A DNA stretch of 48,416 nucleotides, filler included, from Streblomastix strix (lineage: Eukaryota): the NCBI GenBank assembly GCA_008636045.1. It is 2 parts of 2 records of this genome, joined end to end, with 100 filler letters (N's around TTAATTAATTAA, not from the genome) between each part and the next. Parts side by side here need not be neighbours in the genome. Positions count along the whole stretch, not along the records: positions 24,265 to 48,416 come from SNRW01000246.1; 1 more part is not named here. One strand, written 5' to 3'. The translations under genes were made by a program, and so were the position numbers. The notes beneath the pieces are model-generated. The model searched no databases. It saw nothing but the letters and a program-made list of their open reading frames with translations, and had not been told where the DNA came from. Positions 15,309 through 46,822 of the stretch are shown here, piece after piece (the stretch's first letter is position 1; the number at the start of each line of letters is the position of its first letter).

Positions 15309-16379
15309 TCAATACATTTCATATTACTTGACCATTGCGCTTTATTGAGAACATATTAAGCTCATAATTGTCAACACGCAGTAAGGTCGCTGACTTTTGT
15401 TAATGGAATATAGTTTCTGATGTGAAAGTGAATATCCCCCATCGTAAGTCAATTACTAAGGATGAACCTGATCATATCTTTAATAATATGCTGAAGTACC
15501 ATTATTTCCAACTCCATTAACTACTGGTACAATTGAAGCATTAGTTTATACATTAATAGGATGAGAATGATCATTTCTCGCATATGATTCAACTGTACCA
15601 TAAGATCCTTCTGCTGAATAAGTATTAGGAATAGTACCTACAGTCTGAATTGGATGTTAATGATCAGATCTAGCATAAGAACTTACTTATCCAACAGTAC
15701 CAACAGAAGTATCTTTACTTGGTAAAACATCAGAAACTTATAGTGGATGCTTATGATCTCATCTAGAATACTCAGTTGAAGTTCCTGCAACTCAAGTTCC
15801 ACTATCAGCTAATGGAGTAGCATCACTTGCAGGAGTTACTTAATCAGGAACTATATCTCCACTGTTATACGAATTCTAATCACACATCCATACAGTTCCA
15901 CTTTCAGCTGAGAATGCAAAATCACCATTTGCAGAGTTTTCTAATTATTATATATCTGTGTTCAATAAGAAATATCCTATGAAATAAGTTTATCGATTAA
16001 GTTCATCATTAATTTCATTAATTTATTATTATAAACCACCACTATCTTATGTTATAGTTCCCATTGTTTATTACATCATTTTAACTTCTTATTCTAACGT
16101 AGTTATTTTTGCTAAAAAATCATTATTTAATAAATTTATATTTTTCAATGTCATAACACCGTTAGTTTCCAGTTTCATTGCATAACTCTAAGTATTATCT
16201 ATTGGTACATATATTAATGTGTTTTATTCATCAACTGTCAATGAATATTCACTTCCTGATAATTAACTTCTGGAACTTGATGATTTCCTTGAATATTGTA
16301 TCAAATATTGGAAATCTGATTAAATCAAAGAACGAATAACTTAGATCTATTATTAACTCAAGGTTTTAGCTAATGTCAT
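15309..16379 (-). pseudogene. long fibre-like protein with RxDHxHP repeats (element A), truncated
   Basis: Homologous to 32881-35106 (NSANGDFAFSAESGTVWM, VPDQVTPASD, YARSDHQHP, YARNDHSHP). Homology stops after QQLTYDG (~15438). Two internal TGAs. Confidence 0.8.
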
Positions 16380-17450: not shown

Positions 17451-17473
17451 TATATTTATTATAAAACAAACAT

Positions 17474-20179: not shown

Positions 20180-20190
20180 TTTTTAGCAGC

Positions 20191-21672: not shown

Positions 21673-21714
21673 CTTTGAACAATAATCAAAAATAAAAATT
21701 GAATCATACATTCG

Positions 21715-21936: not shown

Positions 21937-21981
21937 TTGATTTAACCAAAATGAAAAATAATTTTATTACGCATTTTCCGA

Positions 21982-22107
21982 TCATTTTTGTTTAAGAAGA
22001 TTAACGATCTGTACTACGAGTAATATGCACGATGAAATACCTATCAATAAATCCCAGCTTGTTGCGACTGCGCCAGCTCGTCGCTAAATTGCTTGCAATT
22101 TTTTCAT
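21982..22107 (-). CDS. small single-TM peptide (41 aa)
   Basis: WDLLIGISSCILLVVQIVNLLKQK is similar to LDILIIISSILLIVTLLKQ encoded from ATG 43761. Confidence 0.5.
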
Positions 22108-22146
22108 ATTTGTTTTATACTCACTTTGTATTTAACTTAAAACAAA

Positions 22147-23116: not shown

Positions 23117-23120
23117 TAAA

Positions 23121-23809: not shown

Positions 23810-23868
23810 GTATTTGGAATTTTTCAAAAATAATTTTTTCACGGATGAATAAGTTTAATATAATTAAA

Positions 23869-24162
23869 TCAATTTAAAAATTAATCTTTAAATTTTTTAA
23901 ATTACGGTGAATTTAGTTATTATTCATTTTCACAGACAAATTTTGTATAATATATCGGTACAGTTATCCTATCCAAATCCGTAAATGGTTTTAATAATAA
24001 ACATTCAACATTTCCGTTATCATATTTAATAAATTTGGCTAATTCATTGAAATTTCTTCTTTATTTCATGTAACGATGCATTGTACGTAAATAATCAACA
24101 TGAATCATTAAAATATTTCCTGGTTTATATTTAGTAAATCCTTAATCTTATTAATCTTATTT
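23869..24162 (-). CDS. C-terminal part of the element A integrase (5' part lost at the gap)
   Basis: KPGNILMIHVD...KQRRNFNELAKFIKYDNGNVECLLLKPF...PIYYT aligns with the C-terminus of 45114-46271. Confidence 0.8.
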
Positions 24163-24164: not shown

Positions 24165-24264
24165 NNNNNNNNNNNNNNNNNNNNNNNNNNNNNNNNNNNN
24201 NNNNNNNNTTAATTAATTAANNNNNNNNNNNNNNNNNNNNNNNNNNNNNNNNNNNNNNNNNNNN
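24165..24264. other. artificial contig-joining spacer
   Basis: 44 N + TTAATTAATTAA + 44 N = exactly 100 bp, a six-frame-stop linker. Confidence 0.9.
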
Positions 24265-26436: not shown

Positions 26437-27007
26437 AGTAGTATAGTAAGAAGAAGTTTGTGGCAACTTCAAAATCATATTAATTTATATCAATTTGCCC
26501 ACGATTATAGAATCGGTATGATAAATTGATTTTATTTAATATGATTTTAAACCTGCAACAACCAATCTTCTTCAAACCTATAGAATAAACATATTCGAAA
26601 GCATTAATCCACAACACTAATACAAAGTATGAATAAATAAGCGTTAATCTTAAAAATTAACGCAGCGATAAACGTTGTGGATTAATTATGTGTATTGTCA
26701 TATATATGAACGATAACGATTATTCAAGCGCATGTTCTTAATTTATTATTAAAAAATATAAAGAGTTAACCAATAAAGTTGGTCTTTTTAAAAAATTGTG
26801 TGGAGCAGCGAGTAGGATTGTTTGTTCGGTTTGATTTTTGGGTTAATATTTTATAAAAATGTGTATGAGTAATAATTCAAAGAATTACTGAATAAAAATT
26901 TACGTTTTTCGATTAGCGCAATTTTGCTGCGTTATGTGGGGTCGAGAAAAATCTGTTCGCTTATATGAATGATTTATTAATAAAATAAATGTAAAAATAA
27001 ATTATAT
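26437..27007 (+). repeat. left terminal inverted repeat (~570 bp)
   Basis: Reverse complement of 46253-46822, with about four isolated substitutions plus a short divergent patch near 26915-26940. Confidence 0.95.
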
Positions 27008-27032
27008 GTTATCTAATAAAAAATAATCAAAA

Positions 27033-27224
27033 TCATTTTTTATTAAGATAAACCTCAGCTATACGTATTGAAACTCGTGTATGATTAAGCAAAGAATATA
27101 GGTGGTTTACTTATTTTTTCTTAAGATCTATATCAAAATCAACAATTTCTTTGGTCTTTTATTTATATTCGTTTTATAGTTATACTTCTTGTTGTTTAAG
27201 AAAATCATATTGCGTCTAATCCAT
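27033..27224 (-). CDS. orphan, 63 aa (MDQTQYDFLKQQEV...)
   Basis: ATG after an A-rich leader to TGA, open with TAR=Gln; packed tightly with neighbours. Confidence 0.5.
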
Positions 27225-27249
27225 TTTAAAACGGGAACAAAAATAATAA

Positions 27250-27537
27250 TCAAAGATCATTATCACCTTCATATTATAGATATCTAGATTCTTCAGCATC
27301 TCTTGCTACTCTAGTATTATGTATCTTACATTATTCGTTACTAAGCTGTTTCATTTCTTTAATATATTTATTTTTGTCCCTAACTATTTTAATATTTGCT
27401 TTATAATCATAGATTTGATCATCTGATAAGAATAATTAACAACTATCTAACTAAAGCATTTCATAATTATCATATGGAATATTACTTGTCAATGTTACCT
27501 CACCTTAATCATTTGTATGTACTATTTTTTAAGCCAT
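27250..27537 (-). CDS. orphan, 95 aa (MAQKIVHTNDQGEV...)
   Basis: Open frame with TAR=Gln, AAAATG start context. Confidence 0.5.
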
Positions 27538-27554
27538 TTTAAATAGGGAATAAA

Positions 27555-27761
27555 TCAAATAAATTTTACTAAGATAATTATCATATGTAAATTTACTATC
27601 ATTTCAAATATTATGTCTAATTCATTTTACATTGATTAAGTAACAATACTATCTGTTTCAGCAATAAATTAACGATTGTCCAGTTATTCTTTCAATCTGT
27701 AATAATCATGTGTCATGATATCATAAATTCTTTCAATACTTCTGAGATTATATGGATTCAT
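27555..27761 (-). CDS. orphan, 68 aa (MNPYNLRSIERIYD...)
   Basis: Open frame with TAR=Gln, AAAATG start context. Confidence 0.45.
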
Positions 27762-27790
27762 TTTTAATATAGGAACAAAAAATTAATTGA

Positions 27791-28417
27791 TCAATATAAA
27801 TCAAAATTAATATCTTTATCCTATTCTTTATACTAAACAGGTTCCTCTTAATATTCCTGAGGAGCTTAAACTTATTCAATTACTTATTCTTTTTCAATAA
27901 TCTATTTAGGTTACTTATATCATTTAACTTTTTATTTATATTTCTTTAATTGATTAACAGAATCTTAGTGCTATTGTTTAATAAATGAATTTTCAGTTCT
28001 CAATCTGATTAGTTCTTCCAAATCAAGTTGAGGATTAACATAATTAATTTATGGAGTTTTAGATGTTTTTACAACTCTTTTTCTAACTAATTTCTTTAAC
28101 TGTTTTTCTCTTACTTCGCCTATTGATATTTCATCGCTTTCATTTTAATCCTCCTACGGTTCATAAGATATAAAATCTTCTTCATCATCAATCTATTTTT
28201 AAGGTTATTTTTATACTTTTTTCTTTGGGTCAATTCTTCCTCCACGAGCTTATAACAATAACTTATTTTGTTATGTTTATGTTAATTTTTTAAGTGTCTT
28301 CTTTCCTTCTTCGAACACTTTTATATCTTTATTAATTTGGATTACATATCCATTGTCAAAGTATTCAATATTTGTTCTATTCTCTTTAAAATTCTTTAAT
28401 ACATGTTGTAAGTCCAT
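27791..28417 (-). pseudogene. conserved orphan Y (one internal TGA)
   Basis: Homologue of 19553-20179, same length (209 codons). Confidence 0.75.
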
Positions 28418-28440
28418 TTGAATATTTTTAAATAAAGAAA

Positions 28441-29163
28441 ATGATAAAGAGCATAGAAAGAAACTCAATTCGAATGTCAAAAACCAAAAAATAGATGTCT
28501 GAGATTAAGCATAAAGAATTAACGGATGAAGATAAAATAAGATTGCAATTGATTGATGATGCAATAAGCAGGATCAAGTCAATGCCTGCCATTGACGAAA
28601 CGACAAAACCCAAAGAAAATCCCACTTAAATTGGGAATGAAATTATTCAAGTAACACCTGAATAATTGATCCTTACAGAATAAAAAATTACTAAGTATAA
28701 GAGCAAATATAATAAAAATAAATATAAACAAATTGATAAAACAACTGCATAAGTTGACCCTGAAGAAGTAGTTAAAAACACTTATCTTTCTCATCGAAAT
28801 CTTGAAGTAATGAAATTCATTATTGACAAATTATGGGCTACAGTTATTGTAAGAAAAAGAGGTGATGATTTTATACTTTCATCAGATAATTTTATTAAAC
28901 TTTGGTCATTAATCACTTAAGAGAATGAAGATGATATTGAAATTGTATTAGAAGAACCGTTAATGAGATCCCATTCGTGCATAGGTAAATCATATAAAAA
29001 GAAAGATTTGATAAAAGTAATGGATCTACTAATTAAAAATATTGGTATATCTGTCATAGATAATGTATTATTTAATTCTATTAGGAAACTGTATCGAATC
29101 AACTAGGATTTTGCACGTTTGTCTGATGCACCAACATCAGAGATTTCCAAAGATGATTTTTGA
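28441..29163 (+). CDS. conserved orphan X (240 aa)
   Basis: Open with TAR=Gln; homologue of 18754-19512. Confidence 0.75.
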
Positions 29164-29215
29164 AATAATTTAGCTGTCTATTTTTTACATTTAATTATTT
29201 TTATCGACAACAAAA

Positions 29216-29629
29216 ATGCTTTCACAATTAGAAATAGCCAAAGGTAAATTCCTTGTTCATCCTCAAATTATACCGAAGGAAATATACATTGAACCTATAT
29301 ATTAATGTAGTGATGATTTCTATTAACGAACATTAAATAAAAATAACAAACCTTACTATAAGTTACTAAAACGATACGGTACTAGCCCAAGTTATCCATA
29401 ATAAATTTACATAATGATTGAGAAGAGAAATAATGAACATATTGATGACACAATTAAATAGTATAACTAACAGATGAAAGTCTTACATGATAATATGGAT
29501 ATAGGTATAAAATATCGTGAATTGAAAGAAGCAGTTGAATAAATGTAAACTCAAACAAAATATATTTAATATAACTAATATGGAGTTAAATCCACAGTTA
29601 ATGGTATAGATTATTATGATAATGAATGA
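29216..29629 (+). CDS. orphan, 137 aa (MLSQLEIAKGKFLVHP...)
   Basis: Open frame with TAR=Gln, preceded by TTATTTTT...AAAAATG. Confidence 0.6.
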
Positions 29630-29653
29630 TCGTTGATTATTTTTGTAATAAAA

Positions 29654-30411
29654 ATGGAATAGTAATTAAGCGATTTAGATATGATTAATGAGGACGAATA
29701 GATTAATTAGTAAGAATAGGTAAGTAAAATAATATAGTAATAAGAGGAGTAATAAAAATAAAATAAAGAACATAACATATTATTATAAGTTATTGATAAT
29801 GAAATTATTAAGTATTTAATTTTTTGAGTTAGTTCTTTAGGAATTCTATCGATTTTGTTAATCTACATATTGACCAGATTATTCGTGGGGTTATGACATT
29901 TTTATCACCTATCATAGTTGGTAAAATTATTAAATAAGGTGGTACAAGCAACTAAATTCTATTAGCTAATGGAGATACTATTGATAAAGATAAGTTAGAC
30001 TATGAATCTATTGAAGATGCAACTTATTAATCAATTGCTTATGGAATGTATGAACGTTTAATTTAGGATACATTTACAACTTAAAACAGTAGAGTATATA
30101 TATCGTTGTAAGTAACTCATTCTGACCCTAATACATTAACGGAATCAGGATATACTATGTTTTCTATTATTAATAATGCTATAAAGTCAAAATTCACAGG
30201 ACCACCACATAACATTCCCATAAATGCTATGATGTTTGCATAAAAGGTAATAGGTTACCCTATATGTTGGAATTGCGCTATTCCTATAGATTGCTTCATT
30301 AATCCTAATGAAAATGTGGTAATAAATACATAGAGCCAGCTTCATTTACCTGATGATTTTTGTTTTCAATTTTGTGATTCTTATGTAATTCATAATTAAT
30401 CAGCTAATTGA
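29654..30411 (+). pseudogene. short fibre-like protein (frameshift in a T-run near 29821)
   Basis: GGTSNQILLANGDTIDKDKLDYE and the rest of the C-domain align closely with 17941-18711. Confidence 0.7.
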
Positions 30412-30430
30412 CAAATTTAAAAATAAACAA

Positions 30431-30577
30431 ATGGATCCCTTCGGTCTTGCAAGCTAAGGATTTAATGCGGCAATCATTTATGCTCTTGACTAATTGAACA
30501 TTTACTGGCATGCTATCTTAAAGACTATATGGGAAGCAGCTATTAAATATGCATGCTAATCAAAGATTTGCCGTTGA
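30431..30577 (+). CDS. orphan peptide, 48 aa (MDPFGLASQGFNAAIIYALDQL...)
   Basis: Fills the space between the short fibre and the capsid gene; open with TAR=Gln. Confidence 0.45.
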
Positions 30578-30597
30578 AAAATAAATTTATTTTTGTT

Positions 30598-32580
30598 TCA
30601 TTGAGGCTTAATAGCTCCACCAGCAAGCACACCAATTATATCGATATTTAGTACTTATGGCATTGAACTTTCATCAAATATAATTCTAACAAACGCATCA
30701 CACGAGTAGTGCAACATTGGTGTAATAGATACTTTAGTAGGTTCAGTATATGCTCTAGTTCCAATGAATTATATGAAATCATTTTAGTTCTATAATGGAT
30801 TTATATTAGTTGTGTCAGTTATTCCTTTAGTAAAATTTCCTTACAAAATAACTTATATATTAGTTCTTGATCCTATCTTTGAATTGTTATATCCTCGGAT
30901 AAATGAATTATCAGTAGCCAATTTCCATGCAAGCATATATTTGTTAGAATATAGTGTTTTAATAGCTTTACTTCCACTATACAATGTTGTTAAATAGAAT
31001 ATGTTAGCTGTTTTATATTAGTCGGTATTATTTATCAATCCGTAGTAATTTTTCTTATCATCAATATTCAAGTTCTCGAATGTAATTGAATGATATAGAT
31101 CTAAAGGAGCACTAACAACATCTTAATCAACGAAGAAATCAAACATTTATCCATTAGTTGCTTAATTTAATGATTTATATGGCTATGGGATAACATTATT
31201 CTAATCAATAACTAGATTAATTCTTGTGAATAATACAGGGAAAAACCATGTAGGATTTTAGGGCATAGCAAATGTCATAAATAGTGACTTTATATTAGAG
31301 AATGACATAATGCTTTACATTGATCCACTACCTTTATCAAATCCACTAAATGGGAAGTTCGATGATTATGTTCTAAATACTTAAGTAGGAAAATTAATTA
31401 TTTTTTGTTATTGAATCAGAATAATTATAGCTTCTTCATTTTCAATATTAAAGCATACGTTCTAAATCTCCAACACATCGAATTTAGCTGTCCCAATTTA
31501 ACTAATTGAATTTTGTGGTACTTTATCACCAATAGCCACATTTCACATATTTACAATTCTTACATTATTTCTAAGATATTCAAGTCCAGTGGAATCTTCT
31601 CCTGCTAAAAGATAAACAATATTAGGTTTTTCAGGAGGAATCATATGATAAGCTAAATGATTATTCATTATAGGGTCATTTTTATTAAGCCAAACAACCT
31701 TCAAATCTTATAGGAGATCTTAAATCTATAAAAATTGATGTAATATTGCATAATTACGTGTAAGAACAGGGAATGAATTAAATATAGGATTTAGTTAGTT
31801 ATGATCAAGTACTCCACTAAATGTAATATCACAAGGTATTCTATAATAGAAAGGTGTTCCAACTGTAGCAGCAATAGCTTATCTATCAATTTTTCAAAGT
31901 TGGATATCAATAAATACTCCACAATGACGTTTTCCTTCAATTATACTTTCAAGATGTGATACGCTAACACTATTTTTAGTACACAAATCACTAAGAGAAC
32001 TCCGACTAATTACAGCTTATTCTCGTGCATAGAATGCTGATCCCCAAAATGCTGTTGCATCTTTCAGTAATTAGAATTGGTAGAATGGTTCACATGCTGT
32101 TGAGAAACCGATCCAAAATTATAGAAGTTCTCATGATTCAATTCCGCCTGCTGTTTTACCATAATATCCTTATGACGCTTATGACATATTTGTAGTCCAA
32201 TCGGCTGTCGGATCTTCATTACCATTGAAATTAGTTCGTGCGACTAATTTACCTGCAGTATTGCATTCATTAAATGTTTTATTTAATTATATCGCTAATG
32301 TATTTGCTGGTATAGTAATTGTCCAATTTACCTAACAAGTTTATACCACTGAACATGCAGATTTACCTCCTGCTCCTAACAATACTCTAGTATATTTAAC
32401 TCCACTAGATATAAGTTCAGTAATAGGAGAATAGAAAAAATTTTATTTTGATATTTCAAATGATTGAGGATGGATAGATAATGTTTTTATAACTTCCCCA
32501 AGTTACATATATCCGCTAACGTAATCAGGATGTTGCATTTTTGCTAATCGTCCAAGATAATCATTGGATTTGAAAGACAT
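30598..32580 (-). pseudogene. putative major capsid protein (660 codons, three internal TGAs)
   Basis: Largest unassigned beta-rich ORF in an element that has a packaging ATPase. Shares an identical 23-nt leader with the penton-like gene. The jelly-roll fold is inferred, not shown. Confidence 0.6.
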
Positions 32581-32600
32581 TTCATTGAAACAAAAATAAA
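32578..32600 (-). promoter_or_regulatory. 23-nt leader TTTATTTTTGTTTCAATGAAATG of the MCP-like gene
   Basis: Identical to 43330-43352; ends in the start ATG. Confidence 0.65.
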
Positions 32601-32645
32601 TGAACTGATAAGATGTTTATGTTAAAAGTTTCTATAATAAATCAA

Positions 32646-32852
32646 ATGGGTTATTTCTCTGGAATAGCAAATTTTGGGTCGAAAATATTAGGTGGCGTTA
32701 AGAAAACAGCATAATGGGTTGTACCAGCATTACATAAAGTTTTATCCACAATATCAGGTCCTGTTGATATGATTCATCCTGCTATTGGAAGTGCATTAGG
32801 TGCATGAGCTAATCACGCAGGTGCTGTTGATCGACTTGTAAATAAACGCTGA
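32646..32852 (+). CDS. small amphipathic peptide resembling the adenovirus protein VI lytic helix (68 codons, one internal TGA)
   Basis: MGYFSGIANFGSKILGGVKKTAQWVVPALHKVLSTISGPV... versus adenovirus pVI WSGIKNFGS. Confidence 0.6.
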
Positions 32853-32880
32853 TCTTGTCATAATTTATTTATAAAGAAAT

Positions 32881-35106
32881 ATGAACAATTCACTATCCCA
32901 ACAATAAATCCGTACAGTTAGATAACTTATCACTAACGATATTGCTTACTATATTCAATATTAGAAACGAGGTAATTCTAGTGGTGGAATGATATCAATT
33001 GAAGAATACTAATTATTCATAGATAATAACAATGCATTAGTCTATGCAGCTAACAATTAAATCGTTGATGGAATGGCATCAGATTACGCATTAAAAAATT
33101 GAACCTAATGGGTTGCAAACAATAAAAAATTGAAAGTGATTAATTTTGATTTTGTTGCATAGATTAATTGGCTGATTAATTAAGTGAATTTACTATAACA
33201 ATCAATTTGAACAACTGAAAAGGATATCACTGATATAAAAAATGATATTGATAATATTAATCAAGAACTATCCCGATAAACACATTTCAGAGGTTATTAT
33301 TTATTGAATGCAGATATATAAAATTTACCTAATTCCGCTAATGGAGATTTTGCTTTTAATACAGAAAGTGGAACAGTTTGGATGTATGATTAAAATTGTT
33401 ATAATAGTGGAGATATAGTACCTGATCAAGTAACTCCTGCAAGTGATACATTACCATTAGTTGATGGTACAGCAGCTGCAGGAACTAGTACAGAATATTC
33501 ACGTGGGGATCATGTTCATCCACTAAATGTAACGACTACTATTCCACCCAGTGATAGAGCTAGTGGATCAGTTGGTACAACTAATTTTTATGCAAGAAAC
33601 GATCATTCTTATCCCCTCAATATAACAACTTCAATACCCCCACAAGATAGTTCTAGAGGATTAGTTGGAACAACTAATTATTATGCTAGAAACGATCATT
33701 CACATCCAATTAATGTAGAAACTAATGCTTCAAATATCCCAATTGTTAAGGGTGTTGGTACTAATGGAACATCAGCTTTTTATGCTAGACAAGATCACGT
33801 TCATCTTTAATAATTAACATAAGATGGAAATGTTACTGCAACAAAATTTATTAAGACATGTGGAACTGCTTCAGAAGTGTTATGAGCTAATGGTGATACA
33901 ACTACAATAGATAGTAAATTTTCAAGGACATATTCTAGTGAAGCAGGTGGATATATTCGATTATATGTATTTCCAACAGGAACTAGCACTGGAGCACCAT
34001 ATATATAATTCTAAATATAATGTGATACAAACGCTATGCAAACTATTGATTTGGTCCCTAATTATACCGTTAATGGAATTGTTGATCTTTATAGCAATAT
34101 TACTGCTCCAACTTATGTATTAACTGGATATAATATATACTATAGAGTTGATTAGCTATTATATACTCATATAGGATCATATTCTTCTGCTGTATATACT
34201 GCATGGATTCATACGATGACAGGTAGCGGAGGTGTAACTGTTACTGTTAGTAAATAAAGCACATACTGGGTTACTCGAGTTACTGATATATTAACATAAG
34301 ATATTGTCACATAAATCGCAGGATCATAAACATAGATTCTAATTTCATATGATTTAGGTAATGGTGGAATAATAAATAATATGCTATATGTTAACCCATT
34401 AAATCGATCTTATATTACTTATAATAATGGAATTAGAATAGGAAATTATAATAATTATTCAGCATTATATTTAGGTGGTTCAACTACAGCTATAAATACT
34501 ACACAAACTGGTTAATGGGAGATAAGTAAAACAAATGATAATGTTCTGTCAATTAACCAATCTACTCTACGATAGGCAGATCATAGTGTTGGATTAAGTA
34601 TTATCGGAGATTGTACATAATTAAAATTTAATAATGTTGACTTATCTGCAAGGGTATCGAATGCTGTATAAAAGACTGGATAAGAATTATAAGTAATTGA
34701 AGGAACAATTAGGAAAAAAGATGATGATGAAGAATCGATTGCCGGTGAATATTTGACCAGAAAAGAGATAAATGATAATTATGTTAGTATAACAGGTGAT
34801 TAAACAATTACAGGTAGAAAAGCATTTAATGGTGTATTCTAGGTAAATCCGACTGGTACAAATTATAATGAAAGAATCTGAATAGCAAAATCAACTAATA
34901 GATTAAGTTAAATATTCTTTGGTGTTGATCCAGCTTAATATAGTGGATAATTATATGTTTAATGGGCTGCTGGCATCATGATCAGATAAGATACTATGTC
35001 ATAAGAATTTGTAATTTGTTTGACATCAGATTTTGGAAACGATAATAGAGGATTACGTATCTCAGCTGATGGAAATACATTAACATTCAGTGGTCGAACC
35101 CTTTGA
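32881..35106 (+). pseudogene. long phage-like fibre protein (741 codons, at least three internal TGAs)
   Basis: Coiled coil, four YxRxDHx(H/Y)(P/L) repeats, GTASEVL.ANGD, QTITGRKAF, and two VNP....YN..I(R)I modules. Confidence 0.75.
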
Positions 35107-35126
35107 TTAATTTATTTTTGAAATAA

Positions 35127-35585
35127 ATGGAAAAAGCTATAACATAACCAATCAAACAATTATTCAATGAATTAGTTAAATATCATTTCTAAGACAATGA
35201 TACAATTAAAGTTACAATTGAAGCATTATAAAATTTGTTAAAGAATGATGTAAAAGAATCAATCCATCCATTACTCTAGGAATTAATGAGAATCAATAAA
35301 ATGTTCACTAATCAATTGCAATAATTATAAAATATAAAGAATATGGTTGATGAAGAAGATTATAAAAATAAGCTATTTAATGAATAGGATAAGTACTTTA
35401 AAAATAAATATCTACTATTCAAAAATTCATTAGATCTAAACAATTAACTACACAAAATAAAGAATTACATTATTTCTGAAGCTAGTGAAGAAGAAAAATA
35501 GATTTATAATTAGTTTGTGAATGATGAGTAATACAGTAACTTTGTCAATTACTATTAACTTAATTTAAAATAATAAGATTGTTGA
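35127..35585 (+). CDS. orphan, 152 aa, helical
   Basis: Open with TAR=Gln; leader TTTATTTTTGAAATAAATG. Confidence 0.6.
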
Positions 35586-35793
35586 TATATTATATGTATT
35601 TGATTATCTCTTCAATTTAATCTTGGATTGGTTCAATGAAAGTATAATGTTTTTTGAATTAGTAATACAATTATTTTTCTTATTAATCAAAGTCATTTGT
35701 CTCGATTAGGGCTTCGAATATTTTGAATATCTCATAATCTGTTGCACAATACTTTAAACTAATGTTTGTAGCCAACTAATACAATTATTCCAT
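35545..35793 (-). CDS. orphan, 82 aa (MEQLYQLATNISLKYC...)
   Basis: Open with TAR=Gln; 3' end overlaps the convergent neighbour. Confidence 0.45.
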
Positions 35794-35803
35794 TTAATTA
35801 ATT

Positions 35804-36172
35804 TCAAACAATTTATTTATTGGGTTAATTTAACATTTTAAGATATAGGATATATCTCCAATGAGTTACCTATTCCAAGTTTTTATTAGCTATTTCTTCG
35901 TTCAGAAATATTTCGATTTATTCTACAGATAGTTATGACCAATGAATGCGTGGTTAATTTTTATCCATTTTTCATTTACAAAAGAATTGTATAATGAAAA
36001 TCGTTATATTTAATGGGACCAATACTATATCGAAATAACTCCATAAGGTTTTTATTACATTAACTGTATCAATCAATTTATTAGGTATGGATACTGATAT
36101 GATTGATGTTATAAAATTAACGCCATAGAACATGTAATTCATTATACTTATGATCAAATTTAAATTGCTCAT
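35804..36172 (-). pseudogene. membrane protein, split by one TGA at 35972-35974
   Basis: Both halves are in frame and align with the uninterrupted 17474-17872. Confidence 0.7.
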
Positions 36173-36219
36173 TTAAACTTTTTCTAAAGTTTAGAATCTT
36201 CGATTATATTATTTTTAAA

Positions 36220-37235
36220 ATGACACTACAAAAATTATAAGATATAACATTTACTAATCAAGATCTATTGAACGAATATAATACTAAGCCATTAATGAAG
36301 AATTCACTGTTCCTTATTAATGGTAATGATTATATTGTTGGAGCTGTTGGAAGTGGCAAAACAACATTAATGTGTAAGCTAGTTGTGGCATATAAGAAAA
36401 TCATTGATCCATTCATATTATACTTCTCGAATTATGGTGCAGATGAAACTATGTCATTAATCCTTAATAGTAATAACATATAACTAATGAATGTAACTTA
36501 TGGAGAAGCAATGTTATTTCTACCTGAATTTGATGAGATAAAATAATCGACTAAGGAGATGTATACATGGTACAAAATGATTGAGTAAAAATAATCATAT
36601 ACTAGTGATTTCATTAAGAGAATGGAAGAATTAATAATATAAAATAATGAGATTAAAAAGAATGAAAAACTTAATGATTATCTTAATAAAATTGCTGAAC
36701 TATTCAAATAAAAAGTAATCGAAACCATTAATACATATAGCTAACCAACCAAAATATTGAGATTCGATCTCCCCGCGCTAATTCAAAACGTTAGTTACTA
36801 AAAGAAATTCAAAATAGTCGATAAAGATCAACTTTATGTAAAAATATTGAAAATACCTATATTAGAAAAAGCGTAATTATTAAATACATTAATGATATTC
36901 GATGATATTGGATCTAATGCAGATATACAACGATTCAGTTCATAATTATCTAAAACAATACCACATTTCGTTAGTGATTCGCTTTATTCAAAAAATACTA
37001 TTTTCTTTATAGCTTAACGTCCTACATATTTGTTCAAGACAGCGAGAATATAAACCCACGTAATTTGCTTAGGCGTGCACTTAGGTGAAACTGATCTAAG
37101 ATAAGTGTACGATGAAAATACCTATAAAATTTGGATTTTGATGAATTCCAATTACTATACAACACATTAAAGAAATATGAGTTTATTATTCTGAATAAGT
37201 GGCTCGGAAAATTTGAGATTCTCAAAAATAAATGA
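36220..37235 (+). pseudogene. A32-like packaging ATPase (frameshift near 37120)
   Basis: GAVGSGKTT, LMIFDDIG, FFIAQRP; aligns end to end with 16419-17450. The SRH motif is changed to SLY. Confidence 0.9.
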
Positions 37236-37239
37236 ATCT

Positions 37240-40200
37240 TCATTCATATGAATAATCATATGCAGTTAATCCAAATAAATAAGGACAGCATGATTCATTT
37301 TCTAGCACGATAGCTTTTGTATGAATTCCTGTGATTCCATTTTTCTCAATTGATAATTAGCTCATCTAATGATTCTTCTATCCCAATCTCATATTAGTGC
37401 ATTTTGTTATCTTGCCTTCATTAATGCAATCGACTATCTACTCTTTAGTTAACTTATTAGGTTTATAATTAACACCTTTCAATTTTATTTTTGAATTAGC
37501 ACAGTAGTTTGTTTCTATCATGTAATTTTTAGGAGCTAATGCAATCATTGATATTCCTTATCTTTCGATCACTAATCCTAATATCTTCTTCTCATCATAT
37601 ACGTCTCCTCTAATGCTTGAAAAGAAATAGTTAGCATTATCGTTATAAAAATCTGAGGTTTTAATAATAGCATTAAATTATTACGTAAAATCTTCATTAG
37701 GATTTCCGCTAATTGCCCAATAAGCTGAATTAGTATCTTCTTCAATAAAATGTATCCTATTCATATCTAAGCATTTATACATGAAGTTATATGTGAAGTT
37801 TGGATACCAATATTTAGCGTTATCTAATACAAAGAATGCTAATTATAAAGGAGTTTTACAACTACAATGCTCTGGGTTCATTTATACAATATAACTGTCT
37901 TCAGATATCTTTTACTCATCCATGAACGCATTAGATCTAATAGCTCTTTCTGTTTACTTTCTATTCATTATTTTAACTTTATGATATTTCTCTGTATTCA
38001 TTCCATCACTACCATATGAGCTATTCATAACTATCTTAAAGAATTATTCTTATCCCTTATTCTCATCTAATTTAACTTTAATCCTGTTTTTAGTAAATTC
38101 CTTAATAAATAAAATGATTTAATCATGTTTATTGAATAACACTATCTATTTCACATCATAAATAATAAAATGACAATCGTCGATTAAGAATCATAAATAG
38201 TATGAGCTAAATGCCATATATTTTCCCATAGTTGATGATAGATTAGTTAGTTTTCTTTATTTTTGATCAGTCTTAATCGTATTGTCTTTCATATGTTTAT
38301 ACATATAACTACCGATAGTTCTTTCATCAGTTGTGAATTCATAATTCCTTAGAATAAGTGGAAAATTAGTGTAATCGTTAAGGTAATTCTCTTAAATATG
38401 ACCTTTAACTTCTGCGATGAATAATTGACCATCAGCTGTAAATCTATTTGTGCTATTAATTATTCTTAATATTGTTTATTTTGAATGATCTCTATCTCCT
38501 TCAATCTTTGCTGTTTATGATCCACAAATATACATTTTTACTCCTGTATATTTAATAAATTTATGTGGCTCTGATGATATAACGCTAGGATATAAAGAAT
38601 TAAAATCAACACCAACTACATGAGTAATTCGATGATCAGTTGTTAGAACTGTTACTTTCTTGGCTTCCTTGTTATAATATAATCGTTTAATAAAATCAAT
38701 TCCTGATCTATTGACTCGTTGTATTACATTTGATTACCCTCCAGTTATTCCTGATCAGATTAAATGATATACATCAATATCTGTAAGGTTAATTAGCAAA
38801 CATTTTATCATGCAAAATTTACGTAATTATATGAACAATTTACTTATATTTTTATCTTTGTTAGAACAGAAGCAATTGCAATATAAACAGCAAGGCTAAA
38901 CGTTATCTTTTGAATGACCTTTTAAATTGTCGATTCTGTCTAATGTTGGCTTATTGGCAAAAGTGAATTTACATCCGCAAATGCAGCAATTAGAATCTTT
39001 GAATAATTGTTTGAAATAATCTAAATCCTTATCTAATACATTAACTATTGTGTCTCTTCTTTAATATTTATCTTAGATTTGATATCCCCACACTTTACTC
39101 TATCAATAGTTCTCAGTTAAGTAAAATTTCTATGATAAATCTTCAAAATTAGGATACACTCCATTAATATCAAAATCCTCATAGGCTTTAGCATATTTGA
39201 TAGCATTAGAGCATGCTGCCATACTCATGAAACTAAACATATCAATTTTATATTTAAATTGTAAGCTAATGAGAGTCATTAATGGTTTGATCATAATATA
39301 AGTATCTTATTCATTATAGAATTATAAGTTATCCCATCTATTTTTATATCGTTTTGCATCTTCTAGATAAATCTAATAATCCTTCTAACTAATTTTTGTT
39401 TTCTTTAATGATGAATTGAAATCTTCCATCGTAAATGGTTCTGATTTGCTAAGTGTATCATTAACGTTATCGGTGTTAAAAGTTTCATAAGGAAATAAGC
39501 CTTTTATATCATCATATCCATCCTCAAAATCTTTGGCTGCTTACTTTAATTCCATAGGTTAAAGATACGTTAACATATCAACAAATTTCACTTTCAAATT
39601 CAATTTCTTATGATGTACAATTACTTGCTTAGCTGTTGAAGCGCTACCTATATAATTACTAATTGTCCAATCTTTACATTACATATATGATATGATTAAT
39701 GATATATCAAATCTTGAGCTATTAAATCCAACAATTGGTACTTCCATTGAATAAGGAATTGTTTCATCAATGGTACAGGCTTCTGTTATGTATTAGTTGT
39801 CAGCATTAACTTACTCAGCTTCTTTAAACAATTAATTTAACCATTAGACTATAAAATCATCTCAATCCTATTAGCTAAAAAAGATTTTCTTAATACCATA
39901 TTTGATACGAATAGTTGAAGCAACTGATAAAGGAAATAGCTCATACATTTAATAACTTGATTTAATGAACTTTTTATTAACGATTTTAGGTACTGTTTCA
40001 AGATCATATATGATGAAATATTGTGTAGGTTTAAACTCATGTTATCTTCCATTTGCTAATAGATATTGCTTAGTTTTGTTCTGCATAATGTGTAGGACAA
40101 ATGGCTTTTAGATAAAGTCCAGTTTAACTTTCTTAACTATTTTTCTTTCGTTATTTTCACATTTAATAATGTGTTTCTCATAGTCTCTTGAATAATTTTT

Positions 40201-41828
40201 ATCTTTAGGATCAAATACTTTTGAGTTACAATGTGGACAAAATTTCAATCCTATTAATGCTTATTTATTAGCTATAGCGAAAGCATGTGATACCTTATTT
40301 CCTTCCCAAATCGATTCAACAACTAATATATCGATTGTCTTAATTTCTTATTTTCATTTTACTCTTCCTATTAATACATTACTTACAATCCTCTATAATA
40401 ATTCTTATGTTCATTATCTTTATAGTAAATGTCTTAGTTAATTTTTAATTTTTATGATACAATATTAGCGTATTTAGTTATATCTAATCCATCAAATGTC
40501 TTCAATAAATCTGTCATTTTTATATTCTTTGAATCGAATGGTAGCTCTAATACTTAACCTAATTGTTGCTTGCTAATGCTAATTATTTCATTATTAAAAT
40601 AACGTTTCTCCTTTGAATCAGGCTGTAATGCCTTTGCTACTACTTCCATATAACAATTATTATTATTATTCCCAGTATTTTTACATATAACATTTTTGCG
40701 ACCATTACAATGAAAATCGATTAATTTTTTCATGCAAGCTCCAACAATTTGAGGTGAAAGATTAAATGTTTTAATCATCATTGAATAGATAGCTATGTAA
40801 CATTACCTTATATTAACTAATGTATAATTCTACATATTTATTATCTCAGATTTAATGTATTAATAATACTCATTAATATCGTCTTCAGATTATATAAGTT
40901 TAGGAGCATGTTCTTATTTATGAGTATCTCTATGTAATATATATCCATAATCAACATAAACGAATTCATGTTAATCATATTTTAATTCTTCGTAGATTAC
41001 ACCGAAATTGAATTGAATCTTGAATGCTTTATGGCGCTATTACTCATAAACCTAATCAATAAACTATTTAATATCTGATAATGATTAGATAACATTATTA
41101 TAGTGTAATTCACTAAGTTACTCATTCGGTTCTGTTTTTTCTATTGTACGTTCACGAGCAAATCCTTATCTTGCATCATAAACTGTTGCAATAAATTGCT
41201 CCATATTCACAGGAAGAAAATATAATAGAGTACCTGCATCATTATCTATTTCTCTAACATTCTATCCATTAAACTACTTAATTCTATCATTAATCTCTTT
41301 ATTTTGTTTGATAATTATTTAATATTGTAGATTCGCATCATATTCTTCATCCATAATTTTTTTGGCTTATTCTTGTTCTCTGTTGATTAAATCAGTCCAA
41401 TAATCATCAGCATATTGTTAATCTTATTCTCTACGATATTCTTATAAATCTTATTCATATTAATTTGAATGATAATGAGTTAAATCTTAATGTAATTATC
41501 GATTCTATTCTTATAAATCATTATAGTAAATATCTGCTTATTGTTACAATTAATCCCTTCGATATTCTTATAAATCTTAATCATATTGATTCTATTTGAA
41601 ATGCTTAGTCATATCTTTTGATTTGATAATTTACTGATTGTATTAATGAATCTATTTAAGATGAGTTTTCAAATTATTGTTGTTATTTCTACATCGTTTC
41701 TTATAATTAATTTTGTCTAAATATTTTTTAAGTTAATCTTTAAGCTATTTTACTTTTAATTATTCATTGATGTTTTTGTTGTTGATTTTGATTAGTTTAA
41801 TTAGCTCCTCTTTCTTTGGGTAAGACAT
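37240..41828 (-). pseudogene. protein-primed family B DNA polymerase with long N-terminal region and HNH-like insert (~1530 codons)
   Basis: ExoI YDLET, ExoII GFNSSRFD, KGLFPYE, ITGG, motif A DFNSLYPS, motif B KIVMNSSYG, motif C degenerate (EDTNS), ALAPKNY and KLKGV. Several TGAs and a frameshift near 40350. Confidence 0.92.
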
Positions 41829-41862
41829 TTTGTTTAAAATAAAAATAATTTATTTAGACAGC

Positions 41863-43332
41863 TCATTAAAATTGTATTTCTAGAAGTAAATTATTATACA
41901 TATCCATATATTACATTGGTATCTTTCTTCCAAAATTATCATATAACGTAAATACTAACGATTTGTTCTGTCCCACAAGACATTACTGACTCATCATATT
42001 CTCTCCTCATAATACTGGAGCATCAACCAAATTCTATTTGAAACATACATTTGAGAATCCATTACCTCCTATTGATTGTAAAGTTATTCCTTGTAATTAG
42101 TTAGATACACAAATTATCAGCATTTATGGATACTCTAGAAAATTCGCTATATATGGACAGAATATTGGTAAATCAACTTCTAAACTTTAACTATCATGTT
42201 TAGTTTAATAGAACCATACTTTGAGATCAATTTGTTTAATAGTTGACGATAAATTAACTAATTAATTGACTCCATTCTCATTCTATTTATCGTAAAGATC
42301 TTACCCACCAACTAATTATACATATAGATTTGGAGATAAAAGTATACGATTAGCGAACCAGTAAGTATTGTTTTATTAACAATAATCAGTGACTACTTAT
42401 GGTATAAATTAACCATAATAATTAGTTCTTCCAACAGAAGTATAAATATCCTACCATTCAACTATACTAAAAGCTGATAATGAATTGATAATTCTAACAG
42501 GAAATGTGTTAATATTATTAATGACTTATTAAATTGTTAATTGTTATACATTAATTGGTTAAGCATCAGATGTAGTAAATGTACCATTAGCTTTTATATC
42601 TACTTACTTACCGAATAGGTACCTTATTGATAATCAGTTACCTTATGTAAAATATTTAGGTTCAATTGATGTTATGTAATTATTTGATGTAGTGCAATAT
42701 AATCGTATTAAACCTATCATTCGATACAACTCATTAACTGTGGAATCTAATATCCAGTAATGATAGAGAAATGCATCAATTCTAAGGTTATTGTAATTGA
42801 TTGCTGATTTCACTAAATCTTAACCATAATTCTAGTTTAATGAGAACATATTATTTTATAATTTTTAAACATGCTCGTTAATTGCATTATTAAAGCATAT
42901 TGCCCCACTATTCAAAGTCGATTATGATCTAAAATATTTCTCAATTGCATCAGTAAAATTATCATATTATGTTAGTGTTAGGAAAAATAATTATGGAGTA
43001 TATTTATAACCTTAAATTGTTTAATCTCTATTATAAGCATTATTTATTTCAGTATTCAAACTAATACGTATTGGAGGTGAACTATCTAGTAATTAACAAT
43101 GAAACTAATCCTCACCAATTTACTATTAGAAATAGATTTTCCTTGAATCAGTAGATACTATATTATGCTATATTTCTATATAATCATTGTTCAAATAATA
43201 TGTCAAATTAATTGGAATGTTATTGATACAATTAACTTGAAAGCTTTAACTTCCACAAGGATTAGTTGTTTACCATGTTACGTAATCCTTATCTGAATCT
43301 GAGTTGATAATTTGTAAGCCGATGCTAATCAT
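41863..43332 (-). pseudogene. putative minor capsid (penton) protein (489 codons, two internal TGAs)
   Basis: C-terminal SLVFTLYDNFGRKIPMQYM...LLLEIQF; homologue of 20191-21672. Confidence 0.6.
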
Positions 43333-43352
43333 TTCATTGAAACAAAAATAAA
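43330..43352 (-). promoter_or_regulatory. 23-nt leader of the penton-like gene, identical to the MCP leader
   Basis: CATTTCATTGAAACAAAAATAAA on the + strand at both loci. Confidence 0.65.
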
Positions 43353-43383
43353 CTCCAAACATGGCTTGGCAGATCGAAGATCT

Positions 43384-43608
43384 TCATGCTCTTTCATTTA
43401 AATACTATATCTATTTCATTACTGCTGATTAGCTGCTCTCTGAAGCTATTTATACAATTTCTTTTAATTGTTCCATCTTAAGACATTTATTGTATTATCT
43501 AAATATAAATCTCAATTCTATCTCAGGATCATTCTTTGTCGCTCCTGATATAAGTTAACTCAAAAACGTTGAATAAGTCATAAATTCTTCACAATTCATT
43601 TTTTGCAT
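43384..43608 (-). CDS. conserved orphan Z (74 aa); frame is open upstream to ATG 43761, adding a TM segment
   Basis: ATKNDPEIELRFIFRQYNKCLKME; homologue of 21715-21936. Confidence 0.75.
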
Positions 43609-43798
43609 ACTTTTAATCTAGAATCTCCGATTATTGCATACTTTTAATTTAGAAAAATAATTTTATTTTAACAAAGTTACTATTAGCAAAATGCTAGAAA
43701 TGATAATCAGAATGTCCAAACAAATTGGTTGTTATTTCTTAATCGGTTATTTTGTTTCCATTTGCTTATTACTAAAATATTAATTAACTCTAATTAAA

Positions 43799-44833
43799 AT
43801 GTCAAAACGTGAAATTAAAAAAGAAGAAACAAAACGACCCAAAGGACGACCGAATAATAAACCAACAGCAACTAATGCAAACGAATATATGTAATTAAAG
43901 AAACCTTTTACGCATTAAGGACAAACTGTTAATCCATTAAATATAGCAAAAGTTCCATAAATTTTGTGGGATTTAGGAAAATATGAGTAAGCATAAGGTA
44001 GAATGAAATAAATAGATTATTAAGCATTATTGAGGCAGATACATCAAGTAGATAAAAGTGTTTCGTTTTATGAAGCTGATGCTGGAATACAAGGATTAAA
44101 AGGCACTGTCAGAAGAGAAAGAATATATGGATCTTTTGATCCCACGGGATTAGTTGCTGATGCTATTTAAACGTAATAATTGGTGTAATAAATTTTGGCA
44201 CCATAATAGTTATAATCATAATAAGAAGCCAATTTCAATCATAATTTAAACATTAATGATCGATTAGATTAACCATCATAACGAGATCCAAGTAATATAG
44301 GACCATCAGCTCCTGATCATAGTATAAAAGATAATGATGATGAAAGAATGGAATTATTTGGAGGATATAATCGTTCCTAAATATAACCATAATAGGAACT
44401 AAATCCTTACTCTAAAAATACTGATTAATAAACTGATTTTGCTCAATAAGTTGATGCAACATAGGAAGATGCCGAAGATGAAAAGGAAGAGGCTATAGAA
44501 GAATAAGAACTTGAAGAAGATAATGAAGAAACTAATAGAGAATTATAATATATTGGAGGATTAAATTGGGGATAAGAACCAGTGCATCCTCACTATAATA
44601 AAAGACCAATTGGACAGATTAATGATTTTGGTTATAGAGTAATTGATTAAGGATTATCTGTATATGCAAAGAAAAAACCTATGTCCGAAGAGGAATAATT
44701 AAACTAACCAAAAAAATAGAAAAAATTCATCTCCAATAAAGAATTGAAGAGCACATTAAAAGCATAATCAAAACTCAAAAAATAAACAAGCCGATAATCA
44801 CGCAAGAAGCCATAGGATAAGAAATCAAAATGA
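43799..44833 (+). CDS. orphan, 344 aa, basic termini with RPKGRP AT-hook-like motif (candidate core protein)
   Basis: Open with TAR=Gln; homologue of 22147-23116. Confidence 0.7.
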
Positions 44834-44841
44834 AATTGCGC

Positions 44842-45093
44842 TCATAGGTTGGGATCTTCAATTAATCGAGAAATTTACTCTAAAATATCATCTGATAATA
44901 TTGTTTTATTAAATATATCAATTATTCTTGATTACTAAATAGAGAGTTATTCTTTAAATTATTTTTACTTTAAACGTTTTCTCTTCTTAGCTTCACCACG
45001 ATATTTCTTAGCCATTTCTTATGCTTCTTATTCGGTAAAATATTTCTTTGGTCTTCCGACTTTTTAAGTAAGTTTTAAGATTTCTGCGTCCAT
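44842..45093 (-). CDS. small AT-hook-like basic protein, 83 aa
   Basis: KVGRPKKYFTEQEAQEMAKKYRGEAKRRKR. Confidence 0.65.
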
Positions 45094-45113
45094 TTATTTA
45101 TCTAGTAAAAATA

Positions 45114-46271
45114 TCAAACCAGTTTAAAAGTTCTCTTATATTTATCTTTTAATGTTTCAGTATTATTTGCAACCTTATGAGTATAATAAATTGGTAAGTC
45201 AAAAATCATAATATCATTGTATGGTTTCAATAGCTCGCAAACAACATTTCCATGTTCATATTTTATAAATGTAGCTATTTCGTTAAACTATCTTCGTTAT
45301 TTCTCAAATAGATGTGCAGTCTTTTTCAAATCAAGATGTATAGTTATAATATTACCTTTCTTTAGAACATATAGATTATCCTTGTATTGTTATCCCTTTA
45401 CATCAGTTTATTCTTTCATTTTTTATCAAATGTATATTCCTTCTAAATTTTCATTCTCATTTACTTATTTAGGAGAGAATTTCTATTTAAAAGCTTAATG
45501 TTTTGTGTTATTATAATCATCTACAACTTATTTTAACTATTTATTATTATCCATTAGTTAAGGATCTTTTTCAAACGCATTCCTTATAGTTCTGACTATT
45601 GAATCAACTACTCTATTTTTATTAACGAAAGGAGATGAGTTATAGAAATAATTTATGTCGTTCTCTTTCAAATAATCCTTAACTTATTTACTTTCCAACG
45701 CTGATTCACCATCTGATCTTATATTGCTAACAAGTTAGTAAGATTTTAATTATTTTATACACTTTACTAGTTCTTTAGCTGATTTATCTTTAATTGGAAA
45801 CGCTACTAGAAAGTTAGTGTTGATATTAATACAAAATAGATATTATCGAATTACTTTTTTAATTGTTGGATGCATTATAAATATAATATCTATTTCCCAA
45901 CTCCTTAACTCAGGTGAGAAATAGGGACGTTAATACTTCTTTAATGGCTTCAATTTAATGTCTTACACTATATAGGTTTTATCTTTAACTTTACTCATTA
46001 ATGGATTCTTAATTTTTTATGGATCCTGTTAAACCTTTGGTTTTTAAGGTTTAACATTCTACTTTATTCGTTCAGCATGATACTTTTAAAAGTTATCAAG
46101 ATAAATCTTATACCATTAAGAAATAAATTTATCTTCAAATTATTCATCCAAAATATTTAGGTTGAATTACTTTTTAAATACAAAATTCTAATTCTTAATG
46201 AAATCGATTAATTTTATTTTATCGACTTTAAACGCTTTATCATCTATAAATTATATAATTTATTTTTACAT
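45114..46271 (-). pseudogene. retroviral-type (rve) integrase (385 codons, TGA at 45426-45428)
   Basis: WEIDII...YLFCININTNFLVAFPIKDKSA...IRSDGES...NRVVDSIVRTIR...YNNTKH...SP. Confidence 0.88.
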
Positions 46272-46822
46272 TTATTTTATTAATAAATCATTCATATAAG
46301 CGAACAGATTTTTCTCGACCCATAACGCTAACTAAAATTGCGTTAATCGAAAAACGTAAATTTTTATTCAGTAATTCTTTGAATTATTTCTCATACACAT
46401 TTTTATAAAATATTAACCCAAAAATCAAACCGAACAAACAATCCTACACGCTGCTCCACACAATTTTTTAAAAAGACCAACTTTATTGGTTAACTCTTTA
46501 TATTTTTTAATTATAAATTAAGAACATGCGCTTGAATAATCGTTATCGTTCATATATATGACAATACACATAATTAATCCATAACGTTTATCGCTGCGTT
46601 AATTTTTAAGATTAACGCTTATTTATTCATACTTTGTATTAGTGTTGTGGATTAATGCTTTCGAATATGTTTATTCTATAGGTTTGAAGAAGATTGGTTG
46701 TTGCAGGTTTAAAATCATATTAAATAAAATCAATTTATCATACCGATTCTATAATCGTGGGCAAATTGATATAAATTAATATGATTTTGAAGTTGCCACA
46801 AACTTCTTCTTACTATACTACT
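46253..46822 (-). repeat. right terminal inverted repeat (~570 bp)
   Basis: Inverted copy of 26437-27007, ending ...TACTATACTACT. Confidence 0.95.

Follow-up and report, generated by a model that had tools for sequence, protein, structure and literature searches.

Analysis of a 48,416-nucleotide stretch of DNA (here called the window) from Streblomastix strix, an oxymonad of termite guts, revealed a broken copy of a multicopy Polinton gene, the product of which has a shaft block in common with phages of the gut and is likely a trimeric attachment fibre of the virion, a reading that we hold at a probability of about 70%.

A fibre gene on the plus strand at 32881–35106 had been proposed from the sequence alone and this was borne out, with the gene being readable in NCBI code 6 only. 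When the window was scanned for ORFs, code 1 gave none of at least 100 aa anywhere and code 4 just 2; codes 1, 11 and 4 were all tried and were rejected, as leaving the window without long ORFs. Under code 6, with TAA and TAG read as Gln, long genes emerged, and the fibre gene was translated into 741 residues, with TAA or TAG used for 38 of its 49 Gln codons. Endogenous viruses of S. strix use code 6 and have capsid proteins that group with those of Trichomonas Mavericks, according to the accessible text of an earlier study (PMC10120064). The parts of the gene were as follows.

32881..35106, plus strand: fibre gene, 741 codons in code 6, broken (translation, alignment to relatives)
32881..33144, plus strand: N-terminal region, aa 1–88, of two types in the family, with relatives found in S. 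strix only
33145..33279, plus strand: predicted coiled coil, aa 89–133 (heptads, helix in a model)
33262..33525, plus strand: block common to phage proteins, 88 residues, 44–61% identical to proteins outside S. strix
33427..33816, plus strand: four R.DH.H repeats, period 31/31/33 aa (protein and DNA repeats)
33817..33915, plus strand: ATKF..ANGD anchor, matched in 117 of 120 proteins searched, the point at which outer halves switch
33916..34365, plus strand: beta-sandwich domain, aa 346–495, predicted lectin-like head (fold model, pLDDT 77)
34381..34644, plus strand: first VNP..YN..IRI module (motif, module comparison)
34801..34827, plus strand: QTITGRKAF linker (Pfam BppL_N at E 0.0047 and 16.9 bits, below the cut-off of 25.8)
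34834..35103, plus strand: second VNP..YN..IRI module, C-terminal, with a relative in one Bacteroidales genome (E 7e-11)

The motifs from which a fibre had been suggested were all found in the translated protein, with corrections. The N-terminal coiled coil agreed with heptads at aa 89–133, having hydrophobic residues at 10 of the 12 a/d positions in the relative P0005, as well as with a helix at 89–132 in the model of P0006. Four HxH repeats were present with the ends that the sequence-only reading had quoted (R.DH at aa 208, 239, 270 and 303), but they were spaced by 31, 31 and 33 aa and not by 26–28 aa; at the DNA level they formed a 93-nt unit with 76% identity. The second His was absent from the second repeat of the window copy, and both His were retained in 339 of 358 repeat matches from 120 relatives. 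The ANGD motif was present within an ATKF..ANGD stretch at aa 319–339, QTITGRKAF at aa 641, and the duplicated VNP..YN..I(R)I modules at aa 504 and 655, being 28% identical to each other. A protein search in which 7995 candidates were scored gave 285 relatives of the fibre protein at E ≤ 0.001, of which the best 120, those listed, all carried the label Streblomastix strix; this number of relatives, together with the retention of the His residues, shows that the motifs are not due to chance. None of the S. strix proteins gave a Pfam or PHROG match above cut-off, with any PHROG match at E ≤ 0.01 seen in 1 of 48 members, and the first matches in an atlas search were S. strix clusters at 0.8, with Phage_head_fibr as a low-scoring lead at 0.76. 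An acidic insert at aa 591–632 (34651–34800, plus strand) was found at that position in 2 of the 120 proteins searched, and a related acidic piece was located directly after the anchor in another class of copies.

The reading frame of the window copy was not open, with TGA codons at 33100, 33208, 33883 and 34879 ahead of the final stop at 35104 and with a short compensated frameshift near codons 73–84. The possibility of TGA as a sense codon was rejected, since the residues of the relatives differed at the four sites and other contigs differed at 33208. Contigs of four public termite-gut or coded runs (three studies) were aligned to the gene at 85% likeness, giving 4262, 582, 256 and 267 contig pieces on the gene, none of which, among the matches listed, spanned it. 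At the 33208 stop the listed depth differed from the window entirely in three of the runs and almost entirely in the remaining one, indicating that the gene is multicopy and that this lesion is private to the window copy. The database model P0007 corresponded to the window copy with the stop-bearing stretches skipped, and other database relatives, being gene models, may thus hide lesions as well; as gene models, P0005, P0006 and P0008 aligned over the whole length and looked intact.

The proposal that the fibre gene lies in a Polinton was upheld, as it was found in an element bounded by terminal inverted repeats and having polymerase, ATPase and integrase genes. Polintons, or Mavericks, are 15–25 kb in size and have long terminal inverted repeats and a 6-bp target-site duplication. 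The element and its other features were the following.

26437..46822, no strand: Polinton/Maverick-type integrated element, 20.4 kb, decayed (inverted arms, ends, gene content)
26437..27007, plus strand: left terminal inverted repeat (inverted-repeat search, ends)
46253..46822, minus strand: right terminal inverted repeat (inverted-repeat search, ends)
29761..30411, plus strand: second, short fibre-like gene with the same anchor motif, 62% identical to a copy at 17941–18711
30598..32580, minus strand: putative major capsid protein gene, 660 codons, 3 internal stops (presumptive identity)
32646..32852, plus strand: small Gly/Ala-rich ORF, 68 codons, one internal stop, directly upstream of the fibre gene
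36220..37232, plus strand: A32-like packaging ATPase, frameshifted near its end, 62% identical to a copy at 16419–17450
37240..41942, minus strand: family B DNA polymerase gene with endonuclease VII-like insert, broken (PHROG)
41866..43362, minus strand: beta-rich gene of about 500 aa, possible minor capsid protein, 55% identical to 20191–21711
45426..46295, minus strand: retroviral-type integrase (Pfam rve as best match, E 5.5e-4, below the curated cut-off)

The inverted arms comprised 493 nt at 99% and 69 nt at 100% identity, the ends began with AGTAGT, and the 6-bp flanks agreed at 5 of 6 bases, so that size, terminal repeats and, within those 5 of 6 bases, target site of the 20.4-kb element were those of a Polinton. 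Within each terminal repeat there was also a 39-nt hairpin (82% complementary, 26-nt loop; 26458–26561 and 46698–46801). With regards to gene content, the retroviral-type integrase was counted as such on the rve match below cut-off, and the ATPase as A32-like on its 62% identity to the paralogue at 16419–17450, which passed Pfam Pox_A32 (E 1e-5, 25.7 bits against a cut-off of 22.8). The polymerase gene was assigned to family B on its match to PHROG 1907, DNA polymerase (E 1.2e-5); it gave no Pfam match, and what we take to be the polymerase motifs A, B and C were visible in it. An endonuclease VII/HNH-like insert was seen inside this gene at about 38870–39230 (minus strand; PHROG 1035, E 1.6e-11). 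The two beta-rich genes of 660 and about 500 codons, candidates for the double jelly-roll major and the single jelly-roll minor capsid protein of a Polinton, had no match in Pfam, PHROG, PDB or viral contigs; for the gene of about 500 aa the capsid assignment is a guess. No adenovirus-like cysteine protease was seen among the ORFs scanned, which covered part of the small ORFs. Stops or frameshifts were found in the polymerase, the ATPase, both capsid candidates and the fibre, with the integrase frame being the sole larger gene of the element without interruption.

The small ORF upstream of the fibre gene starts with Met-Gly and has an amphipathic look. Of 175 gene models in the database, 37 have it fused to the fibre, and it had no family match in Pfam or PHROG; in look it recalls protein VI of adenovirus, a membrane-active small virion protein. 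The short fibre-like genes at 29761–30411 (plus strand) and 17941–18711 (minus strand) each showed a coiled coil, a QVITG-type linker, the anchor and a C-terminal domain of their own, and there may be two fibres per element.

The remainder of the window was separated from this element by an N-spacer at 24165–24264, in which TTAATTAATTAA is flanked on each side by 44 N and which links two pieces; elements on either side are thus not true neighbours. Beyond the spacer a further copy of the fibre gene was found adjoining the ATPase gene of that side.

15430..16379, minus strand: second fibre copy, ending after the repeats, 57% identical to P0005 over 317 aa

This copy belongs to a partial second element (about 15400–24160), in which the genes are ordered differently, the fibre immediately following the ATPase, and the N-terminus of the fibre is of the other type. 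The ATPase and the gene of about 500 aa in this element were open, whereas its fibre was broken and truncated.

Comparison of the repeats with phage databases, as the sequence-only reading had called for, gave clear phage homologues. When residues 128–215 were searched against 1.84 billion representatives, 2157 proteins were found at E ≤ 0.001, the best 150 of which comprised 62 of S. strix type and 88 others. Sequences from which the block could be obtained in full numbered 98 of S. strix type and 59 others, with the best identities between the two sets being 44–61% (60% for the window copy), reaching up to 61% over 87 residues. Among 20 proteins looked up, 3 were from Bacteroides/Tannerellaceae, 3 were named 'hypothetical' and 14 had no name. 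Pattern matches in locus scans were confirmed for 10 of 35 viral, 14 of 20 genome and 25 of 34 metagenome loci, and the genome matches were labelled as gut Bacteroidales, Clostridia and one Melainabacterium. Selected neighbouring genes were scanned at 11 of the 49 confirmed loci, revealing portal, tape-measure, baseplate or head-protease neighbours at 6 of the 11 and a tail-fibre neighbour at 1, with hallmark neighbours absent among the genes scanned at 4; genes for terminase, portal, head, sheath or baseplate were found at all 3 of L036, L045 and MT835552. The carriers were located in tail modules (L010, L021, MT835552) as well as among head genes (L024, L026, L031 ahead of the portal gene, L036 flanked by terminase and portal, and L045), and are thus tail or head fibres. 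They matched PHROGs of tail-fibre or virion proteins, including 'minor head' and 'virion structural'. The loci L024, L026 and L031 were Bacteroides prophage-like with an unusual order of tape measure, head protease, long fibre and portal, the fibre there repeating the shared block 3–4 times.

The block was repeated up to 8 times within one phage-type protein. Taken singly, the repeat is a unit common in phage fibres (7 of 22 matches); of 7 long proteins containing it, 5 also matched tail-fibre PHROGs in their other parts, at E < 1e-8. Among 50,697 annotated phages, tblastn gave one repeat in MT835552 (E 1e-4) and a weak match to a Cylindrospermopsis phage tail fibre (E 0.6). When profiles A1 and A2 were run against the PDB, nothing was found below E 0.18, and the matches included no T4 fibre, whether the solved gp37 or gp12. 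Homology to phage virion fibres was thus found in aa 128–215 and in the repeats. The earlier description of a phage-style tail fibre therefore held with regards to the phage homologues of block and repeats, but the word 'tail' was too narrow, as several carriers lie among head genes.

A tree was built from 88 columns with midpoint rooting, keeping after removal of near-copies 20 of the 98 S. strix rows and 49 of the 59 others, with the metagenome loci L033–L057 left out. All 20 S. strix rows formed one side of a branch (99/92; 200 of 200 bootstrap trees), and the neighbouring branch (90/54) held one Tannerellaceae row on a long branch together with two unnamed rows. A single origin of the S. 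strix block is thereby supported by the sequence tree, and the block likely came once from the tailed-phage pool of anaerobic guts, either directly or through another virus. With the neighbouring branch at 90/54, a donor among phages of co-occurring bacteria, as supposed by the sequence-only reading, is a conjecture. A detour of the block into the Polinton by way of other eukaryotic viruses, or its origin in an old shared pool of fibre parts, in place of direct acquisition from a termite-gut phage, is possible but rather doubtful. Many Polinton-like viruses, those of Trichomonas among them, have phage-like fibre parts (PMC12220804, accessible text), the S. strix versions differed mutually about as much as from phages, the remainder of the fibre protein had no close phage relative, and by record title none of the labelled relatives was a termite-gut symbiont. 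Against this detour stand the identity to phage proteins of up to 61% over 87 residues and the finding that no carrier besides S. strix was labelled as a eukaryote among the 20 proteins looked up, 14 of which had no name. The question concerns the route only, and either answer is compatible with an attachment fibre.

Modular swapping of the C-termini across copies, a further check proposed by the sequence-only reading, was clearly seen, with outer halves exchanged at the fixed anchor. Of 175 S. strix-type proteins, 102 having repeats, anchor and 100 further residues were used, a sample biased to the head of the window copy. The sequence after the anchor fell into 9 classes of 74, 11, 6, 4, 2, 2, 1, 1 and 1 proteins, of which one singleton may be a gene-model error. 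Five proteins were chosen as examples for comparison with P0005, their first 345–380 residues being identical to it at 94% (P0038), 93% (P0063), 92% (P0034), 88% (P0052) and 82% (P0033), and beyond these residues the five shared with P0005 the terminal modules alone, at 30–57%. Phage receptor-binding fibres are known to exchange what lies C-terminal of a conserved junction, and a variable, exchangeable C-terminal part is what was found here. Such clean swaps between copies that are 94% identical in the shaft suggest, at the level of sequence comparison, recent selection on the tip.

The searches made with the outer half and the N-terminus found few relatives. Module profiles for N-terminus, anchor, head and first VNP module gave 0 matches in 438 frames or proteins, residues 313–697 of P0006 matched none of 7987 long proteins, and scans of viral contigs by head or C-terminal alignments confirmed 0 of 94, 0 of 40 and 0 of 55, with two of these scans being weak tests, as their patterns were drawn partly from elsewhere; in the searches made, these four parts thus had no significant sequence relative outside S. 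strix. The anchor region of the short second fibre gene was 40% identical over 67 aa to a crAss-like phage protein (E 0.004), and as the profile probability of the anchor against the crAss-like phage protein YP_010111417 was 3.7%, this is a hint only. For the C-terminal modules, which the sequence-only reading had wished compared with databases, the last one was matched but the first VNP module was not. The match was to the end of a beta-helix protein in one Bacteroidales genome (E 7e-11; genomes matched in the last-module search, 2 of 401), the protein matching Pfam Beta_helix below cut-off. This lone, tailspike-like gene (L061, 10098–11858, minus strand) ends in the last module of the S. strix fibre; it was located between housekeeping-looking genes of the Bacteroidales chromosome, in a region that by its ORF list was not prophage-like. 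In the Bacteroidota sample the shared block was found in 1 of 401 genomes, that one being the centre genome.

A monomer model of P0006 had a mean pLDDT of 56, showing the helix at 89–132, a confident small beta domain at 136–179, unfolded repeats (pLDDT < 50) and beta domains after 346, and fold searches with the whole chain hence rest on a weak model. The domain at 346–495 folded alone reached a pLDDT of 77. It gave 38 viral fold matches at E ≤ 0.001, with a best TM of about 0.6 at 6–16% identity, the best being tail fibres of Vibrio phage VP3, Shigella phage JK38 (gp37) and Klebsiella phages. Among 48,161 PDB chains the best match was the C-terminal domain of the tailspike-like WceF (Z 9.7, rmsd 4.8, 134 aligned), and matches 2–8 were phage tailspike, fibre and baseplate chains at Z 5.8–6.5, a range deemed common. 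The head is accordingly predicted to be a beta-sandwich of phage fibre or tailspike type, and fibre-type folds were found, in models, for the coiled coil, the beta domains and the head (TM about 0.6). A shared fold shows no function, and glycan binding by the head is suggested by analogy with the modelled fold.

We propose that three fibre chains would wind together as a homotrimer, in which an HxH pair from each of the three would bind one metal ion per repeat and thereby stiffen the shaft. The N-terminus (aa 1–88) would dock on a capsid vertex, with the beta-sandwich and the C-terminal modules presumably binding a surface glycan, and a swap of the outer half would change the receptor. Either the protist itself or the Bacteroidales ectosymbionts on it may carry this receptor.

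Several known systems resemble such a fibre in part. The fibre of T4 gp12 has an HxH metal-binding tip. In T4 gp37, HxH motifs of three chains bind a metal ion (PMC11705849, accessible part). The S. strix protein resembles gp37 and gp12 in having spaced HxH motifs in a fibre shaft, and the best fold matches for its head include a gp37-labelled protein, but in S. strix the HxH repeats are located along the inner part of the shaft and not at the tip, and there was no sequence match to solved T4 fibres. The gut Bacteroidales and Clostridia phage fibres (L010, L021, L024, L026, L036, MT835552) have the coiled-coil end, small beta domain and DH.HP repeat in the same order, but mostly one HxH repeat per block, other N- and C-termini and code 11. 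Phage-like fibres with BppL_N and phage tail repeats have been described for Polinton-like viruses, with independent entry inferred in the available text (PMC12220804), where the general idea of such a fibre in these viruses is thus already published. One such protein, Ltf of Gezel-14T, was found in purified virions (10.1101/2022.07.28.501842, available text), and Tetraselmis Polinton-like viruses and MELD viruses have annotated fibres in the literature as far as accessible. With these the S. strix proteins share a long modular build, phage fibre parts, a weak BppL_N-type motif and the proposed role in host attachment. They differ in having no Pfam matches to Peptidase_S74 (PF13884; no match in P0001, P0005, P0006, P0008, P0033 and P0038), collagen, laminin G or PTR, and in combining R.DH.H repeats with a gut-phage knob that, in the S. 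strix proteins, is recognised by neither Pfam nor PHROG models; the host, moreover, is an oxymonad and the fibre is known from genes alone. The tripartite tail of virophage DSLV2 (PMC12724248, accessible text) likewise is a phage-related fibre in a small eukaryotic dsDNA virus living among bacteria, but is formed by three genes with a gp37-like collar (PF07484), whereas S. strix has one gene, no collar match and an integrated Polinton-type element. The Metamonada-group endogenous viruses of S. strix (PMC10120064) agree with ours in host label, code 6 and high copy number, but that study classifies capsid genes, and the word 'fiber' was absent from its main text and supplements in the parts accessible. 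In the literature outside subscription journals we found no description of the S. strix fibre.

Two other roles for the protein were considered. It is unlikely that the protein is a capsid decoration of the head-fibre type, or a leftover, in an element that spreads as a transposon and forms no infectious particles today. The interruption of all larger genes of the element except the integrase frame fits this, as do the several phage carriers among head genes with their 'minor head' and 'virion structural' PHROGs and the low-scoring atlas lead to Phage_head_fibr (0.76), but the apparently full-length relatives P0005, P0006 and P0008, both His kept in 339 of 358 repeats, and the clean exchange of outer halves between copies with 94% shaft identity argue otherwise. 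An extracellular stage, which had been taken to follow from the gene, is one that a fibre gene fits but does not imply, with both the window copy and its element being decayed.

The other role, quite unlikely in our view, is that the fibre binds a polysaccharide of the Bacteroidales rods coating Streblomastix, so that particles ride on the symbionts and the swaps track their strains. Many filamentous Bacteroidales ectosymbionts are present on Streblomastix (PMC2717939, accessible part), the head resembles C-terminal domains of tailspikes acting on bacterial capsules, the last module has its sole relative at the end of a beta-helix protein from a Bacteroidales genome, the labelled rows nearest to the S. 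strix clade are Bacteroidota, and the tail proteins of virophage DSLV2 bind Synechococcus LPS (PMC12724248, in the text available). However, the nearest-neighbour branch has 90/54 with most rows lacking a label, such beta-sandwiches bind many glycans, and among the 401 Bacteroidales genomes sampled the block was in the centre genome only. Extended to active gut-virus Polintons, in which a phage-derived, metal-stapled shaft with swappable glycan heads would dock on Bacteroidales symbionts and the virus would be carried between protist cells and termites, the idea is a speculation of low probability.

Finally, a phage or bacterial contaminant in the single-cell assembly, for which it speaks that gut protist assemblies generally contain bacterial DNA, has a practically negligible probability and is refuted by the Gln usage of TAA/TAG under code 6 and by the position of the gene inside an element with terminal inverted repeats and target-site duplication, with related copies numbering in the hundreds.

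With the window copy being dead and the concept published, the interest of this particular gene is limited. Most published cases of gene transfer from phages to eukaryotic viruses rest on remote profile matches, and the attachment fibre proposed here has a block up to 61% identical to phage proteins, making such gene flow traceable by sequence. To our knowledge, Polinton particles have rarely or never been seen. Selection on a receptor-binding protein would be expected to leave just such a family, with many copies in which the shaft is conserved and the tips are freely exchanged, and this supports a viral life cycle for the Polintons of oxymonads.
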